Origin: an uncultured Candidatus Saccharibacteria bacterium
Lineage (GTDB): Bacteria; Patescibacteriota; Minisyncoccia; 2-02-FULL-40-12; GWA2-44-9
Assembly (NCBI GenBank): GCA_964513645.1
Contig: CAZENF010000001.1
Coordinates: 266,022-303,837, forward strand
Reading direction: 5' to 3'
DNA: 37,816 nucleotides
The notes under the pieces were generated by a model. It was not told the origin of the DNA. It searched no databases and saw only the letters and a program-made list of their open reading frames with translations. Shown in pieces: positions 5,803-25,397 of this stretch. The position numbers and the translations under genes were made by a program. Numbering within the stretch: position 1 is the first letter of the stretch; every line of letters starts with the position of its first letter.

Positions 5803-6960
5803 TTAGGCTTTCATCAGAAGTTCGAAGGTTTTTACTGTCATTTTATCCGAACTATATTTCTCAACGGTTCTTTTGCCTTCGACCGCAAACTCGTCCCTCA
5901 ATTCAGGCGACTGATGCATACCTTTGATGGCTTCGATCAGGTTGAACTCATCATTATATTTTACCAAAAAACCGTTCTTGCCCTGGCGGATAACTTCTTT
6001 GTTGCCGCCGACGGCGCTGGCAATGACCGGCACACCGGCCGCCATTGCTTCCAGGATCTGATGGGAAAAACCTTCATAGCCGCTGTTCAGAACGAACATG
6101 TATGAGGCAGCCAGATAAATTGCCATTTCTTCTTTGGATTTTTTCCCGACAATATAGACCTTTTTATCCAGACCCATATTTCGAACTATTGTTTCAAGAG
6201 CCTGCCGTTCCGGACCGTCACCGATTATGACCAGCCGGATGAACTGGTTTATCTCAAGTACCTTCGGCATCACTTTGATAAGCATCCTAAAACCTTTCCA
6301 TGGAACTAAACGGCCGCTTGAAATGATTATATTGCCGGGAATACCTATTTTTTTACGAGCATCTTCCCTTGAAAGGTCGGAATTTTTAAAATCCACGCCG
6401 TTATAAATAACGTGTATCTTTTCGGGAGGTATCCCCCACTTTTTGACCATGTTGCCCAAGTATTCAGATGGTACGATAATTCCGTCTGCTTTACGGCAAA
6501 CATTTTTCTGGATATTCGAAAGATTTTTGATAAAGCCACGCTTAGCGGTGTCCTGAAAATCATTTATCAGAAGTGACGATTTTTTCTTATTTATCGCGAT
6601 CTCCCAGGCATAATCACCGACTATTTTTACCAAAAATCTTTTTTTACGGAGCCGGGCGGCCGTCAGCGCCGGCCAGCCGGCGCTGACGGCGTTCAATGAC
6701 AAAATAACGTCGGTGTTTTTTGCCTGATCCAGGACTCTGAAAAAATATATCAGATGCCGTAGGCCTTTCGGCCATTTGCGCCAGACCCTGACAACCTTGA
6801 ACGGTAATTCTTTGTCGGAAGGGTGGTTGAATCTGGAAGAATAAGTAATCACCGTAATAGAAGCGTTCTGAGGCGCATTTCTGCCTAAAGTCATAGCATA
6901 AGACGCCGGACCCCCTATGTCCGGGGCAAATATTCCGGTTGTAATTAGAATTCTCGTCAC
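5803..6960 (-). CDS. Glycosyltransferase family 4 (GTG start)
   Basis: FAPDIGGP, IYNGVD, GRLVPWKG, EGFSHQILEAMAAG. Confidence 0.93.
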   Translation of the reverse strand: MTRILITTGIFAPDIGGPASYAMTLGRNAPQNASITVITYSSRFNHPSDKELPFKVVRVWRKWPKGLRHLIYFFRVLDQAKNTDVILSLNAVSAGWPALTAARLRKKRFLVKIVGDYAWEIAINKKKSSLLINDFQDTAKRGFIKNLSNIQKNVCRKADGIIVPSEYLGNMVKKWGIPPEKIHVIYNGVDFKNSDLSREDARKKIGIPGNIIISSGRLVPWKGFRMLIKVMPKVLEINQFIRLVIIGDGPERQALETIVRNMGLDKKVYIVGKKSKEEMAIYLAASYMFVLNSGYEGFSHQILEAMAAGVPVIASAVGGNKEVIRQGKNGFLVKYNDEFNLIEAIKGMHQSPELRDEFAVEGKRTVEKYSSDKMTVKTFELLMKA

Positions 6961-7664
6961 TTGAATAGATTAAATTTTAAGATATGCCACAGAGCGGCAA
7001 GACCGTCTTTCCAGTTGATTTTTTTGCCTTCACCATAGGTCCGGCCTTTATAAGAGATGCCGACCTCATAGACCCGAAGGTGGGCCTGGGCAACTCTGGC
7101 GGTAAGTTCCGGTTCGATACCGAAACGCTCGGCAGTCAGATGGGGCAGGATCTTTTTAAGAGCATCTCGGGTAAAAACTTTATAACATGTTTCCATATCT
7201 GAGACATTCAGGCCGGTAAAAACATTGGACACGAACGTCACAAGCTTGTTGGCCATATAGTGATGGAAGTAAAGGACCCGGCGCGGAAAAGCCGTTACAA
7301 ATCTTGAACCGAAAACCACATCGGCGTCGCCGTCGAGTATCGGCTGAAGAAGTATCGGATATTCCTTGGGGTCATATTCCAGGTCCGCATCCTGGATAAG
7401 TATCACGTCCCCGGACGCCTTCTCAAAGCCCCGCCTGACCGCTGAACCTTTGCCCATATTCCGGTCGGTCAGGATTATCCGGTGCTTGTTTGAATAACGA
7501 CGCAGTATCTCGCGCGAACGATCGGTTGAACCATCATCGACCAATATCAATTCCTTCTCGCATTTCATATCCACAGCGGAAACCGCGGCAATTATATTGT
7601 CGATGGTTTTTTCTTCGTTATATACCGGAATAACGATGCTTAATTTTTTCAGTTCAAATTTCAT
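6957..7664 (-). CDS. Glycosyltransferase family 2 (DPM1-like)
   Basis: LSIVIPVYNEE, VDDGSTD, QDADLEYDP, DMETCYK; start moved to ATG 7664, which overlaps the upstream stop (ATGA). Confidence 0.93.
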   Translation of the reverse strand: MKFELKKLSIVIPVYNEEKTIDNIIAAVSAVDMKCEKELILVDDGSTDRSREILRRYSNKHRIILTDRNMGKGSAVRRGFEKASGDVILIQDADLEYDPKEYPILLQPILDGDADVVFGSRFVTAFPRRVLYFHHYMANKLVTFVSNVFTGLNVSDMETCYKVFTRDALKKILPHLTAERFGIEPELTARVAQAHLRVYEVGISYKGRTYGEGKKINWKDGLAALWHILKFNLFK

Positions 7665-8791
7665 TGCAACTCTTGATATAATTTTCTGAATTTGTCCGCA
7701 ATTATATTCCAATCATATTTTTCCGAAACCATTTGGTAAGCATTCGATATCATTTCCTGTCTTAGCTTATCGTTTTCCACCGCCGTCCGTATCTTGAAAG
7801 CGATGTCTCCAGGCTCAAGCGAACAGTAAAGTCCGGTCTTCCTGTCTTCTAAAAAGTCAGGTATTCCTCCGACCCTGGTTCCGATTACAGGAATTTTGGC
7901 TGCCATCGCTTCAAGAAATGCAGTACCCAGGCCTTCAGACCGTGACGGCCTCGCAAAAACATCTGATATTTTTAAATAGAGCGGCAGCTCATCCGGACGG
8001 GCTGAACCGGCAAAAATAACCCTCTTTTCTAAACCCGATTCCTTGACCCGGGAGACTAAGCCCAACCGCATCGGCCCGTCGCCGACCAGAAGAAGTTTAT
8101 ATTCCCCGCCCAGATTCTTAAGGGCTTCGATCAGAAGATCAACACCGTTCTTGGGTACGAGACGTGACACACTGATGATTATTTTATCATCCGGCATTAT
8201 ACCAATTTCCTTTTCGGCATTGGCCATATCACCGTAACTGAATTCTTTTGAAAAGCTTCCCACATCCACCCCGTTCGGTATGAGGTCCGTCCGGATGTCG
8301 TTATTTATCTTCAGAACATAATTTTTAAGATAATTACTAATTGCTGTCGCGCGGTCAGCTTTTTTTATTATCAATTTTCTAAAAAAACGGATAATAAAAT
8401 TTTGTCCGTCGAGATCTTTGCCTTCCTGAACGGTAAGCAGGAAAGGGATGTCTTTATAAAAAGTTCTCGTCATCCAAGCCGCACCTGCCCCATATGACGC
8501 TTGGTATGAATGAAATGTCAGACAAGTATTTTTAAGCAGCTCACGGGCTTTTAAAAATCCTGTCAGAGGAAATAAAAATTTATCCAATCCGGAGCCGTAG
8601 CCAAGGCGATAGACAGAAAAATTAGCACCTTTCTCGGTCGTAGGAAGTTCTTTTTTATAACGCGGGGTCAGTATTTCAAAAAAAAATTCAGGCAACCTCC
8701 GGTTTATCTCTTCTATTGCAAGTTCGGAACCGCCAATGAACGGCCTGAAAGCCGTTGTAAATACCAATATCCTGTTTGTTCCAATAGCCAT
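7661..8791 (-). CDS. Glycosyltransferase family 4
   Basis: PFIGGSE, IPNGVD, SRLVPKNG, PSRSEGLGTAFLEAMAA. Confidence 0.93.
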   Translation of the reverse strand: MAIGTNRILVFTTAFRPFIGGSELAIEEINRRLPEFFFEILTPRYKKELPTTEKGANFSVYRLGYGSGLDKFLFPLTGFLKARELLKNTCLTFHSYQASYGAGAAWMTRTFYKDIPFLLTVQEGKDLDGQNFIIRFFRKLIIKKADRATAISNYLKNYVLKINNDIRTDLIPNGVDVGSFSKEFSYGDMANAEKEIGIMPDDKIIISVSRLVPKNGVDLLIEALKNLGGEYKLLLVGDGPMRLGLVSRVKESGLEKRVIFAGSARPDELPLYLKISDVFARPSRSEGLGTAFLEAMAAKIPVIGTRVGGIPDFLEDRKTGLYCSLEPGDIAFKIRTAVENDKLRQEMISNAYQMVSEKYDWNIIADKFRKLYQELQ

Positions 8792-8852
8792 AAACCTTGT
8801 TAATACCTCAATTTTATGCTATTATATTGCCACAAATGAGCCCAAATAACAA

Positions 8853-9129
8853 TCCCGTACGAACCAGCATGTTCTACTACACATATATAATTCAAAGCAT
8901 AAAGAATAAGCAGTTTTACACAGGATTTACGTCTGACCTACGGAAGCGCTTTAATGACCATAACGGCGATAAAAATTCATACACGAGAGGTCGAGGTCCT
9001 TTTGAATTAATATATTACGAGGCGTGTAAAAATATCAAAGACGCGACCCAAAGAGAAAAATACCTTAAATCTGGACGAGGCAAGCGTTTCATCAAAGAAA
9101 GATTAAAGCGCTTCCTGGTTCGTACGGGA
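8853..9129. mobile_element. Putative 277-bp mini-element: GIY-YIG gene between 15-bp terminal inverted repeats
   Basis: TCCCGTACGAACCAG (8853-8867) and its exact reverse complement CTGGTTCGTACGGGA (9115-9129); CAA directly outside both ends. Mobility is inferred. Confidence 0.55.
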
Positions 9130-9144
9130 CAAGCTTCAATATGA
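8869..9144 (+). CDS. Small GIY-YIG nuclease family protein (UPF0213-like)
   Basis: YYTYIIQS...FYTGFTSDLRKRFNDHN...YTRGRGPFELIYYE...REKYLKSG; ATG 8869 most likely (8836 possible). Confidence 0.9.
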   Translation: MFYYTYIIQSIKNKQFYTGFTSDLRKRFNDHNGDKNSYTRGRGPFELIYYEACKNIKDATQREKYLKSGRGKRFIKERLKRFLVRTGQASI

Positions 9145-10289
9145 AAATACTCTTTATTATCACTCAGTCGGAAATGGGCGGAGCCCAGCGTTTTTTGTTC
9201 AATTTTTTAAGCAGAATTTCCGGACGGTATGAACTTGCGGTGGCTACCGGTTCCGACGGAGGTGATGAACTGACTGAAAAATTAAGATCTCTCAATATCG
9301 AAACTTTTCGGCTTGAAAAACTCAAACGCGAGATAAGTCCGGTCAGTGATCTCAAAGCTGTTTTCGAAACAAAAGAACTCATCGAAAAATTCAGGCCGGA
9401 TGACGTTTTCCTATTAAGTACCAAAGCAGGATTTGTCGGTTCGTTCGCCGCTAAGATGGCAAAGCGTGCAAATCCAGGACTCCGTGTAATTTACCGTATC
9501 GGCGGCTGGACCTTCAATGACCCTTGGCCGAAATGGAAAAAGAAGCTTTGGATAATACTTGAGAAAAAAAGCGCCGCCTGGAAGAATATTATAATCGTCA
9601 ATAACCGTCACGACCTCGAACAGGCCAAAAAACTCGGCATCAGACCAAAAGATGCTCTGGCGCTTGTTCATAACGGCATTGATCCTTATAAACTTAATTT
9701 ACTGCCCCCGGACGAAGCCCGTCTGAAAATATTTGAAAAGATCTCCCGCAAATCAGGCAAAATATTCCAGGCCGAAACAATTATCGGCACTTTGGCCAAT
9801 CTCTACCCGCCCAAAGGAATAGATGTGCTCATCGAAACCGCGGAATATTTCAGAAAAGAAAATGTTATTTTTGTAGTGATCGGCGGAGGCCCACTTAGAG
9901 ATGAACTTGAAATAAAAATAAAAAATTCCGGTCTGGAGAAAAAATTCTTTATCCTCGGACAAATTCCGGATGGTCACAAACTTTTACCCGCTTTTGATAT
10001 TTTCGTTCTGCCATCAGTCAAAGAAGGTTTTCCTTTTGCGATCCTTGAGGCAATGGCTGCCAAACTGCCTGTAATCGCGACCCGTATCGGTTCGGTGCCT
10101 GAAATGATAGAGTCCGGCAAGAATGGTTTTATCGTTGAACCGGGAAATCCCGCGGCTCTCGCCGGAAAAATAAAAGACCTTATCCGAAACGATCATCTTC
10201 GCAAAGAATTCTCAATTCAAGGCCATCAGACCCTCCTCTTTAACTTCACCGAAGATAAAATGGTCAAAGAGACCGAGGCATTACTCTAA
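9141..10289 (+). CDS. Glycosyltransferase family 4
   Basis: ITQSEMGGAQ, VHNGID, PSVKEGFPFAILEAMAA. Confidence 0.93.
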   Translation: MKILFIITQSEMGGAQRFLFNFLSRISGRYELAVATGSDGGDELTEKLRSLNIETFRLEKLKREISPVSDLKAVFETKELIEKFRPDDVFLLSTKAGFVGSFAAKMAKRANPGLRVIYRIGGWTFNDPWPKWKKKLWIILEKKSAAWKNIIIVNNRHDLEQAKKLGIRPKDALALVHNGIDPYKLNLLPPDEARLKIFEKISRKSGKIFQAETIIGTLANLYPPKGIDVLIETAEYFRKENVIFVVIGGGPLRDELEIKIKNSGLEKKFFILGQIPDGHKLLPAFDIFVLPSVKEGFPFAILEAMAAKLPVIATRIGSVPEMIESGKNGFIVEPGNPAALAGKIKDLIRNDHLRKEFSIQGHQTLLFNFTEDKMVKETEALL

Positions 10290-13638: not shown

Positions 13639-13678
13639 AACCAAAAACCGTCCCGCTTTAGCGGGACGGTTTTTGGTT
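13639..13678 (-). terminator. Intrinsic terminator of the VOC gene
   Basis: Perfect 18-bp stem AACCAAAAACCGTCCCGC-TTTA-GCGGGACGGTTTTTGGTT. Confidence 0.85.
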
Positions 13679-14150
13679 ATTTCCCTTGATATGCTCTTTC
13701 GAGTTCCGCAATATCGAATTTTTTCATCTTCATAAAAGCGGCCGTGACTCTTTGCACTTTCTCTTTATCCAGATCTGCTAACATTTTGCTTAGCACTACC
13801 GGCACCACTTGCCAGACAATACCGTACCGGTCGACGACCCAACCGCATTGTATCTCTTTGCCGCCTTCTTTGAATGCATCCCAGTATTTGTCTATCTCTT
13901 CTTGGGTCTCGCAATTTACCACCAGAGAGAAAGGTCCGTTGCCATTAACCACTCCCGGTCCGCCGTTAATAGCTGTAAACTCACGTCCACCGAGAGTAAA
14001 GGACAACATCATTGCTTTGTCTTTTGGCGGAACCTCGGGTCCCATTTTCACAAGACTTGTTATCTTAGAATCTGGGAACAGAGACACATAAAAATTAACC
14101 GCCTCCTCGGCCTTATCCTCGAACCAAATAAAAGGTGTAATATTTTTCAT
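13677..14150 (-). CDS. VOC/PhnB-like protein (3-demethylubiquinone-9 3-methyltransferase domain family)
   Basis: ITPFIWFEDKAEEAVNFY, AINGGP, CETQEEIDKYW, QCGWVVDRYGIVWQVVP. Confidence 0.92.
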   Translation of the reverse strand: MKNITPFIWFEDKAEEAVNFYVSLFPDSKITSLVKMGPEVPPKDKAMMLSFTLGGREFTAINGGPGVVNGNGPFSLVVNCETQEEIDKYWDAFKEGGKEIQCGWVVDRYGIVWQVVPVVLSKMLADLDKEKVQRVTAAFMKMKKFDIAELERAYQGK

Positions 14151-25323: not shown

Positions 25324-25350
25324 TTCTTTATTGTAATATTTTTAAAGAAA

Positions 25351-25380
25351 TAAAAAAATGAGCGGTTGCTCATTTTTTTA
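25351..25380 (-). terminator. Terminator after FKBP
   Basis: TAAAAAAATGAGC-GGTT-GCTCATTTTTTTA. Confidence 0.75.
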
Positions 25381-25397
25381 TTTCTAATTTTAGCAAA

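Follow-up and report, generated by a model that had tools for sequence, protein, structure and literature searches.

The window analyzed here, a 37,816-nucleotide stretch of contig CAZENF010000001.1 (positions 266,022 to 303,837) from an uncultured Candidatus Saccharibacteria bacterium, contains between two divergent GT4 glycosyltransferase genes a 277-bp unit (positions 8853–9129, forward strand) with a small GIY-YIG nuclease gene. This unit probably belongs, as the protein-coding member, to a family of mobile elements that are very small and end in inverted repeats, its single gene encoding an Ssn-related GIY-YIG protein. A more far-reaching proposal, for and against which we see about equal weight, is that it is a minimal, autonomous transposon and belongs to a new enzymatic class. 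Its open reading frame (ORF), without a start and stop of its own, would encode an Ssn-type single-strand nuclease; the element would land on the A/TGAA of start codons, take ATG and TGA from the duplicated target, and rebuild the host ATG. It would be recognized as a folded single strand via its terminal repeats and an inner helix in synonymous positions, and the gene-less MITEs (miniature inverted-repeat transposable elements) of this genome, possibly along with the NTS/SRM hairpins of Proteobacteria, would be its non-coding derivatives. The first-pass annotation of the window had suggested a selfish element or a repetitive extragenic palindrome (REP)-like palindrome/nuclease system. This suggestion is supported by the MITEs, target duplications, empty sites, and covarying repeats described below; comparative genomics lends support to the selfish-element reading, while both of its versions fit and are not fully separated.

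A perfect 15-nt inverted repeat (8853–8867 and 9115–9129) brackets a gene of 91 codons. The left arm, TCCCGTACGAACCAG (forward strand), defined by the sequence and by covariation in 37 aligned elements, is separated by one base, C, from the ATG at 8869. The right arm, CTGGTTCGTACGGGA (forward strand), is its exact reverse complement and, read in the frame of the nuclease ORF, encodes L-V-R-T-G, with the C-terminus ...RFLxxTG being kept in homologs. Homologous elements measure 275–282 bp. The ORF (8869–9144, forward strand; 91 amino acids from the internal ATG and 102 from an upstream ATG at 8836–8838) fills the element: the left repeat immediately precedes the frame or falls within its 5' end, and the last five codons are formed by the right repeat. 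In the window, the frame continues for 15 nt beyond that repeat and ends in a TGA overlapping the ATG of the next GT4 gene. The trinucleotide CAA stands directly outside both arms (8850–8852 and 9130–9132), which on the left is an atypical flank, the family norm being TGAA. The perfect terminal repeats, the one-base spacing, the LVRTG codons, the CAA flanks, and the setting between divergent GT4 genes (7661–8791 on the reverse strand and the gene starting at ATG 9141, overlapped by the nuclease stop) had all been described in the first-pass annotation, and all of them were confirmed. Two more features, the inner inverted repeat described below and the in-frame ATG at 8836, had been missed there.

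The repeat is a property of the nuclease family. The homologous loci comprised the best 80 of 203 confirmed in a species-representative genome collection and 19 from relatives (99 in total). Of these, 88 could be evaluated, the other 11 lying against contig ends, and at least six loci represent a record obtained twice, via two tools. The 40 nt before the ATG were compared with the last codons, and in the controls one side was shifted by 300 nt. At 56 of the 88 loci, in several phyla, the 5' edge of the ORF and its 3' end form an inverted repeat with a score of 11 or more; in both shifted controls, the count was 0 of 88 and the highest score 9. The repeat reads ...CGTACGAACCAG and ...CGTTAGAGATA in Patescibacteria homologs, ACCCCGTGAGATA in Verrucomicrobiota, and ACCCTGTGAAATA in Bacteroidota; since its sequence differs from lineage to lineage, the two arms covary. 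Covarying flanking repeats at homologous GIY-YIG genes, proposed earlier as a check, are therefore present. A chance match around an ordinary small gene can be regarded as refuted. Scanning very many windows does yield some 15-nt matches, but in 300 first-order Markov shuffles of the whole window perfect inverted 15-mers no more than 400 nt apart occurred at a mean of 0.017 per window, with at least one pair in 1.3% of shuffles. Moreover, the repeat recurs 15 times in the genome, and homologs carry it at the same two positions.

The borders of homologous elements indicate how the ORF is delimited. The exact layout ATGAA/TCCCG...CGGGA/TGAA, where slashes mark the element boundaries, was found at 12 homologous loci. 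An alignment was built of 37 elements (the window element and 36 distinct loci with at least 57% identity, reaching residue 85). In 27 of them (24 TGA, 3 TAA), the stop codon is drawn from the flank triplet right after the last repeat base. An in-frame ATG is present in the left flank of 12 of the 37 and is the sole in-frame start in 8 of those 12. Typical copies thus have 94 codons from flank ATG to flank TGA (5 + 277 = 282 nt), and, with both the start ATG and the stop lying in the flank, such copies have no start or stop codon of their own. The window copy is atypical in its CAA flanks and its own ATG, and belongs to a minority (10 of the 37) with an internal ATG and read-through past the repeat. 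Its right flank, CAAG, is common to two relatives (loci L029 and L019), the ORFs of which continue for about 140 residues; a Pfam search of these extended ORFs found the GIY-YIG domain only, with no match in the extra residues. Two arrangements of neighboring elements were also observed. At loci L081 and L082 of a Verrucomicrobiota genome, only TTCA separates a right end from the next left end, the elements thus standing in tandem, and a hairpin element of about 50 bp with the related ends ACCCCGTTAGAAGT...ACTTCTAATCGGGGA (L029:3275–3330) lies directly 3' of a homologous nuclease element.

Gene-less elements with the same ends were found in the same genome, which comprises 936,729 bp in five contigs, is 100% complete by marker genes, and has Patescibacteria as its relatives by protein search. 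Matches to the left arm, with mismatches allowed, were mostly inverted pairs 60–105 bp apart; the search for further repeat copies recommended in the first-pass annotation thus returned inverted pairs with target duplications. In the whole genome, 15 gene-less elements of 71–117 bp begin with TCCCGTACGAAG and end with CTTCGTACGGGA. These MITEs split into at least three sequence subfamilies, within which identity is 63%–91%, although one pair at unrelated sites is 99% identical. Perfect ends of 15–19 nt were retained in 11 of the 15, and folding of the MITEs as single-stranded DNA, via their ends, gives z-scores between −4.2 and −6.6. Twelve of the 15 stand between perfect direct repeats of 4 bp (9 TGAA, 3 TGGA); one more has a three-of-four match and two have none. 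The start codon is rebuilt in 14 of the 15 MITEs, where the last A of the element and the TG of the repeat together form ATG. At least 100 open codons follow the rebuilt ATG behind 11 of the 15, vs 7.9% (1,451 of 18,467) of the TG[AG]A sites of the genome, and an independent ORF listing contains ORFs starting on the last base of a MITE.

Empty sites were found in relatives for both a MITE and the coding element. One MITE is followed by a gene of 438 amino acids. In eight of nine relatives' loci, this gene starts at the same ATGA(A/G), and no element is present in the 150 nt upstream; the ninth locus could not be read. The locus in these relatives is a textbook pre-insertion site. The divergent GT4 pair around the coding element consists of an upstream gene (7661–8791, reverse strand) and a downstream gene (9141–10289, forward strand), the latter with orthologs in 28 of the 31 genomes searched; its ATG overlaps the nuclease stop as ATGA. 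All 11 relatives' loci keep the two genes in synteny, and in none of them does the nuclease gene lie in between; GIY-YIG matches in the genomes of these relatives included none at the locus of the GT4 pair. The spacer measures about 40–130 bp in ten of these loci and 519 bp in the eleventh, and the window spacer of 349 bp corresponds to 72 + 277. The same GT4 pair without the cassette is what the earlier call for empty sites in relatives had anticipated. The 519-bp spacer, found in a same-genus relative, holds a gene of 121 amino acids (L094:1068–1433) of the 23S rRNA-intervening-sequence-protein family (23S_rRNA_IVP, PF05635, E 1.8e-16), so a different small gene has been inserted into the same GT4 spacer.

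Across genomes, the end motif goes together with the nuclease. Copies of ATCCCGWWHGA were counted in ten relatives grouped beforehand by protein search, with the reversed pattern as a control. Each of the five relatives with a homologue of at least 64% identity contained 36–118 copies (control 1–5), mostly as inverted pairs whose sequence variants match those of the nuclease genes in the same genome. The five relatives with no homologue or only a distant one contained 3–8 copies each (control 0–7) and no pairs. As the relatives are not independent, this co-occurrence is a consistent pattern rather than a statistical test.

Four-base duplications combined with terminal inverted repeats are classical features of DDE transposons, and the MITEs might have been moved by an unrelated transposase, with the GIY-YIG gene a passenger between two ends. 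This alternative appears very improbable. A search of the whole genome for DDE_Tnp_1 (PF01609), Y1_Tnp (PF01797), rve (PF00665), and the TnpB zinc-ribbon (PF07282) gave no matches, these four being the only transposase families searched for, and the genome contained no repeats longer than about 590 bp. In addition, the conserved C-terminal codons of the nuclease are, across phyla, what forms the right repeat, in an element filled by the ORF; the repeats covary with the nuclease lineage; and the motif stays at background level in the five relatives without a close homologue.

The element contains a second perfect inverted repeat (8942–8955 and 9102–9115), the 3' arm of which stands against the right terminal arm. 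In the aligned elements, this inner helix corresponds to a 5' arm at 8943–8955 (forward strand), inside the codons for R-K-R-F-N, and a 3' arm at 9102–9114 (forward strand), inside the codons for R-L-K-R-F and adjoining the right terminal repeat. The 3'-terminal 28 nt of the element are thus complementary to two separate 5' segments. Over the 37 elements, 92.4% of cells are paired in helix 1 (the terminal repeats), with 9 of 15 pairs changed on both sides, and 89.4% in helix 2 (the inner helix), with 6 of 13 pairs changed on both sides. For both helices together, the values are 91% and 15 of 28. The covariation score of 0.337 compares with 0.125 in shuffles, none of 500 shuffles scoring as high, and sliding the partner columns by 1–3 positions as a control reduced pairing to 31%–46%. 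Exact pairing of at least 10 nt in the inner helix was found in 32 of 38 elements, vs none of 38 with a control segment, and its mean length of 11.9 nt fell to 5.3 nt after synonymous-codon resampling (p <= 0.05 in 33 of 37 elements). An independent run of RNAalifold recovered the same two helices and nothing else of note. The second conserved helix inside the coding sequence, covarying at synonymous sites, is new here.

Such pairing could in principle act only in the message, with the 5' leader and early coding segment pairing with its 3' end to control translation or stability and the terminal repeat arising as a by-product. As RNA the strand folds well, at −73.5 kcal/mol (z −4.2), and its minimum-energy and centroid structures both contain the two helices. 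The synonymous-site covariation indicates selection on pairing, and the left arm stops 1 nt short of the ATG. Nevertheless, we regard this explanation as improbable. Covariation cannot tell RNA from single-stranded DNA; the mismatch cells (13 G-T vs 33 A-C, 13 of the latter at one junction pair) do not favor the sense strand, and the element also folds as DNA (z −3.2). The gene-less copies keep the ends and target duplications at unrelated loci, and motif abundance follows the presence of the nuclease across genomes. A role in the message is compatible with mobility but cannot replace it.

The window protein matches the GIY-YIG family PF01541 of Pfam over residues 3–70 with 66.8 bits (cut-off 22.6, E 2.2e-18). 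It falls below the cut-off of the NCBIfam model for group I intron endonucleases, TIGR01453 (23.7 bits, cut-off 56.05). Y6, Y17-x-G, R25/R27, and R62-E63 align with conserved columns of the homologs and of GIY-YIG proteins flanked by the NTS repeat, and we take these motif residues to be catalytic. The roles of the matching residues in SsnA are given by the mutants Y6A, Y17A, and E64A, as described in the main text of the Ssn study (PMC11893778). Among solved structures, the best matches by sequence are UPF0213 proteins, PDB 1zg2 (E 8e-9) and 1ywl (E 1.6e-3). The family has many members: among 1.84 billion representative proteins searched, matches fell into 6,994 clusters (50% identity) with E <= 0.001 and 768 with E <= 1e-10, and the annotated lengths of the relatives range from 67 to 655 amino acids. 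The nearest homologs (75%–77% identity) belong to other genera and families, while the best one in the same genus has 59% identity; the distribution of the nuclease is therefore patchy. With two perfect helices and no conserved residue lost, the window copy looks functional.

The two other GIY-YIG genes of the genome (31% identity) are not flanked by the repeat of the cassette. One of them, only distantly related (C1:146694–147101, in the locus L003:1–3225) lies directly upstream of tRNA-Lys(ttt) (L003:1747–1820), and the stretch just 5' of this gene repeats the 5' part of the tRNA gene, as if the nuclease gene had been inserted there with a partial duplication.

Typical copies sit on a host start codon and duplicate TGAA, giving the ATGAA/TCCCG...CGGGA/TGAA layout. 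The upstream ATG of the target can start the nuclease ORF in frame, and the duplicated TGA ends it. The host gene stays intact, because the last A of the element together with TG restores its ATG, and it is probably translated by coupling. The MITEs use the same ends and the same target as the coding element. Taken as mobile elements, the 277-bp unit and its gene-less relatives could move as follows. In a single-stranded DNA state, the terminal repeats and the adjacent inner helix would pair, bringing the ends together. The nuclease would recognize the paired stem, as SsnA does its NTS hairpin, and would presumably do the cutting, at the stem base and at the TGAA target with a 4-nt stagger. 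Rejoining of the ends might be left to host repair or ligation, which would complete the move.

Several points weigh against this mechanism or against the mobility of the window copy. GIY-YIG enzymes hydrolyze DNA, and to our knowledge no GIY-YIG enzyme joins strands; since these enzymes are hydrolases, the "paste" step has no known catalyst. The window nuclease is the only copy of its own subfamily in the genome. Its element has no TGAA duplication, and CAA on both sides may reflect either a duplication of 3 bp or chance; the caution of the first-pass annotation on this point was right, as the usual duplication of the family is the 4-bp TGAA. Compared with the commonest MITE repeat (...GAAGTAG), that of the window element (...GAACCAG) has 3 differences over 15 positions, so the MITEs here may have been moved by another, since-lost nuclease variant. 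Among the homologs, 27 of the 52 loci with recognizable ends have no direct repeat, and in Verrucomicrobiota and similar groups the flanks resemble an extended inverted repeat rather than a duplication. As the homologs are related to each other, counts over them overstate independence. Finally, no movement was observed. A look-up of sequencing runs listed three DNA runs of one study, stored as contigs, and no RNA set. The contigs were compared with a 16-kb stretch with three MITEs; the assembled contigs span all three without any skipped form, and the three joints listed in the comparison lie away from the MITEs. Contigs drop rare variants, and this check therefore weighs little. The excision junctions proposed for inspection in the first-pass annotation were likewise absent from the assembled contigs, the sole public data. 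The second run very probably carries the cassette as well, since it contains 0.93 of the sampled words of window positions 8300–9700.

These observations leave some room for a host-serving, domesticated Ssn-type nuclease with its recognition repeats, which would act on the dispersed hairpin-forming copies to a cellular end, for example by limiting or shaping the recombination of incoming single-stranded DNA, with no current transposition of gene or repeats. SsnA and NTS modulate transformation in Neisseria meningitidis, and domestication of an insertion sequence-like unit has been proposed in the main text of that study (PMC11893778). The window copy has atypical flanks, an operon-like setting, and a conserved promoter-like motif; the contigs show no presence/absence variation; and most MITE copies have diverged to 63%–91% identity. 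Nevertheless, this explanation seems rather unlikely to us. None of the 11 relatives' loci has the gene at this position, and the nearest homologs belong to other families. The MITEs have target duplications and empty sites in relatives, and one pair is 99% identical. Borrowing of start and stop codons from a target is a property of insertions and not of resident genes.

The window element starts 17 nt 3' of the A of ATG 8836 and ends 11 nt 5' of the GT4 ATG. The nuclease frame is open from 8797 to 9144, and translation from ATG 8836 (forward strand) would add the N-terminal sequence MSPNNNPVRTS. In several relatives, this ATG is the start codon of the GT4 gene and follows a conserved TATAAT-like motif, TATAAT-gccacaa-ATG being kept at the matching place. 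A consensus scan placed a promoter-like site, TTGTTA-17-TATTAT or TTAATA-17-TATATT, just 5' of ATG 8836 (8797–8828, forward strand), although with 3 such sites in the region vs 1.3 expected the signal is weak. Being in frame with ATG 8836 and overlapping the GT4 gene through ATGA, the nuclease ORF is embedded in a host translation unit, as in typical copies. The window copy thus sits at a non-typical site while being translationally embedded like typical ones.

The closest published system is that of the Ssn nucleases with NTS/SRM hairpin repeats, as presented in the main-text parts of Chenal et al. (Nat Commun 2025, PMC11893778). SsnA is a single-domain GIY-YIG protein of 94 amino acids that cuts only single-stranded DNA beside the NTS hairpin and, together with NTS, modulates natural transformation in N. 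meningitidis; 42% of Ssn homologs are repeat-flanked on both sides (PMC11893778). The authors remark on the insertion sequence-like NTS-ssnA-NTS layout and suggest domestication (PMC11893778). Target duplications, start-codon targeting, and MITEs are not reported in the main-text parts of that paper considered here, and the words "MITE," "Correia," and "Patescibacteria" are absent from its main text (PMC11893778). In the literature searched, which included few subscription journals, no description was found of a prokaryotic GIY-YIG element that has terminal repeats or MITEs or inserts at start codons, and we know of no bacterial transposon with an enzyme of this type; one preprint uses SsnA loci, in the portion consulted, merely as a benchmark.

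For a direct comparison, the printed NTS motif was scanned, giving 120 loci, and these were searched with a hidden Markov model (HMM) of the cassette family. Among the ORFs of the 120 loci, the HMM identified two NTS-flanked GIY-YIG proteins (E about 1e-13), to which the window protein has 36%–38% identity (BLASTP, 42 bits). Used as a proxy, these HMM and BLASTP matches suggest membership in the Ssn family (cd10448). A tblastn search of the window protein against 80 of the 120 loci gave no match. At the NTS-flanked homologue L205, in a layout resembling that of the cassette, the repeat ends 1–2 bases before the ATG, and its inverted copy overlaps the last codons and the TGA. Two other candidates were rejected. 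Locus L130 has an inverted NTS pair 443 bp apart but no GIY-YIG ORF, and was discarded as a true SsnA locus. A GIY-YIG protein of 91 amino acids, the only small one found in the Neisseria lactamica genome, was discarded as an Ssn reference, having no dRS3-type repeat in its 3.2-kb locus and 30% identity over 46 residues. It was also observed that the exact 28-nt Neisseria NTS consensus occurs in records (L123–L242) labeled Dehalococcoidia, Planctomycetota, Latescibacterota, and Peribacteria, among many distant groups, often as inverted doublets 85–110 bp apart that are MITE-like in look.

The cassette shares with the Ssn system a single-domain GIY-YIG protein of about 94 amino acids (91 in the window, 94 codons in typical copies) and a gene standing between two copies of a repeat that also occurs elsewhere in the genome, here in 15 further inverted pairs. 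The core TCCCG...CGGGA is common to the printed NTS motif as well, a short match only. Unlike complete NTS hairpins, the flanks of the cassette are half-site arms, and a stem can form only between the ends of the element. The gene-less copies here are MITEs of 71–117 bp whose 4-bp target duplications fall on start codons, the ORF of the cassette family begins and ends with codons provided by the target, the coding region contains a second covarying helix, and the host is a Patescibacteria-like genome. UPF0213/YhbQ-type proteins are of the same size and have the same single domain as the window protein, but the similarity to them is no stronger than that to the NTS-flanked proteins (39 bits by phmmer vs 42 bits by BLASTP, which use different scoring scales).

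Another relevant comparison is with REP/REPIN sequences and RAYT, where a single-copy gene for a Y1 (IS200/IS605-like) transposase is flanked by inverted short dispersed repeats and the substrates are thought to be single-stranded hairpins. REP/RAYT systems are also cited for comparison in the main text of the Ssn study (PMC11893778). The cassette resembles them in having a single-copy gene with inverted copies of a short genome-dispersed repeat on both sides. It differs in its enzyme, a GIY-YIG hydrolase rather than an HUH/Y1 protein (PF01797 has no matches in the genome), and in the target duplications of its family; we know of no such duplications made by IS200/IS605 elements.

Bacterial MITEs such as Correia/NEMIS, RUP, and the Rickettsia palindromic elements are small, have terminal inverted repeats and target duplications, occur in many copies, and leave genes undamaged. 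The cassette family is similar in size, inverted-repeat ends, target duplications, copy number, and location beside or inside genes that are not destroyed, but has a 277-bp coding partner with a nuclease instead of a DDE transposase, and targets the start codon and rebuilds it. Among the features by which insertion sequences and MITEs are defined, terminal inverted repeats, multiple copies, duplications (12 of 15), and empty sites (8 of 9) were found, although the window copy itself has only the 3-bp CAA; a transposase of a recognized class was not found among the four Pfam families searched (PF01609, PF01797, PF00665, and PF07282). I-TevI and other free-standing or intron-borne GIY-YIG homing endonucleases are selfish genes that spread by DNA cutting. 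They have the GIY-YIG catalytic domain in common with the cassette protein, but the latter has no separate DNA-binding domain and no intron, and copies of its family occur at many unrelated sites rather than at one homing site.

If the nuclease moves these elements, they would be among the smallest self-mobilizing DNA units known and, if this is true, the first bacterial transposon family using a GIY-YIG hydrolase. Such a family would tie the Ssn/NTS system, described in 2025 as a transformation regulator, to orphan hairpin repeats and MITEs lacking a known transposase, and also to start-codon-rebuilding insertions in the compact genomes of ultra-small bacteria. Since each nuclease lineage has its own covarying end sequence, the family is a natural catalog of matched single-strand nucleases and sites, of the kind wanted for single-stranded DNA tools in the main text of Chenal et al. 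(PMC11893778). In genome annotation, these insertions yield false N-terminal extensions and fused or split gene calls.

Some further repeats were noted. An Rfam scan of window positions 8000–10000 at E <= 10 gave no family over threshold and three sub-threshold chance matches. Elsewhere in the window, three more inverted repeats, perfect over at least 15 nt and closed by short loops (6659–6690, 13639–13679, and 25346–25386) are probably terminator-type hairpins. In the genome, a low-complexity or masked stretch on contig C3 (near 122303) produced thousands of trivial inverted 15-mer matches. Other palindromic MITE-like families of 150–210 bp, with 12, 7, and 5 members, are present as well (for example, C1:62807–62972, C3:45997–46185, C2:27551–27745, and C2:73177–73380); no coding partner was identified for them, and their ends are unrelated to those of the cassette.

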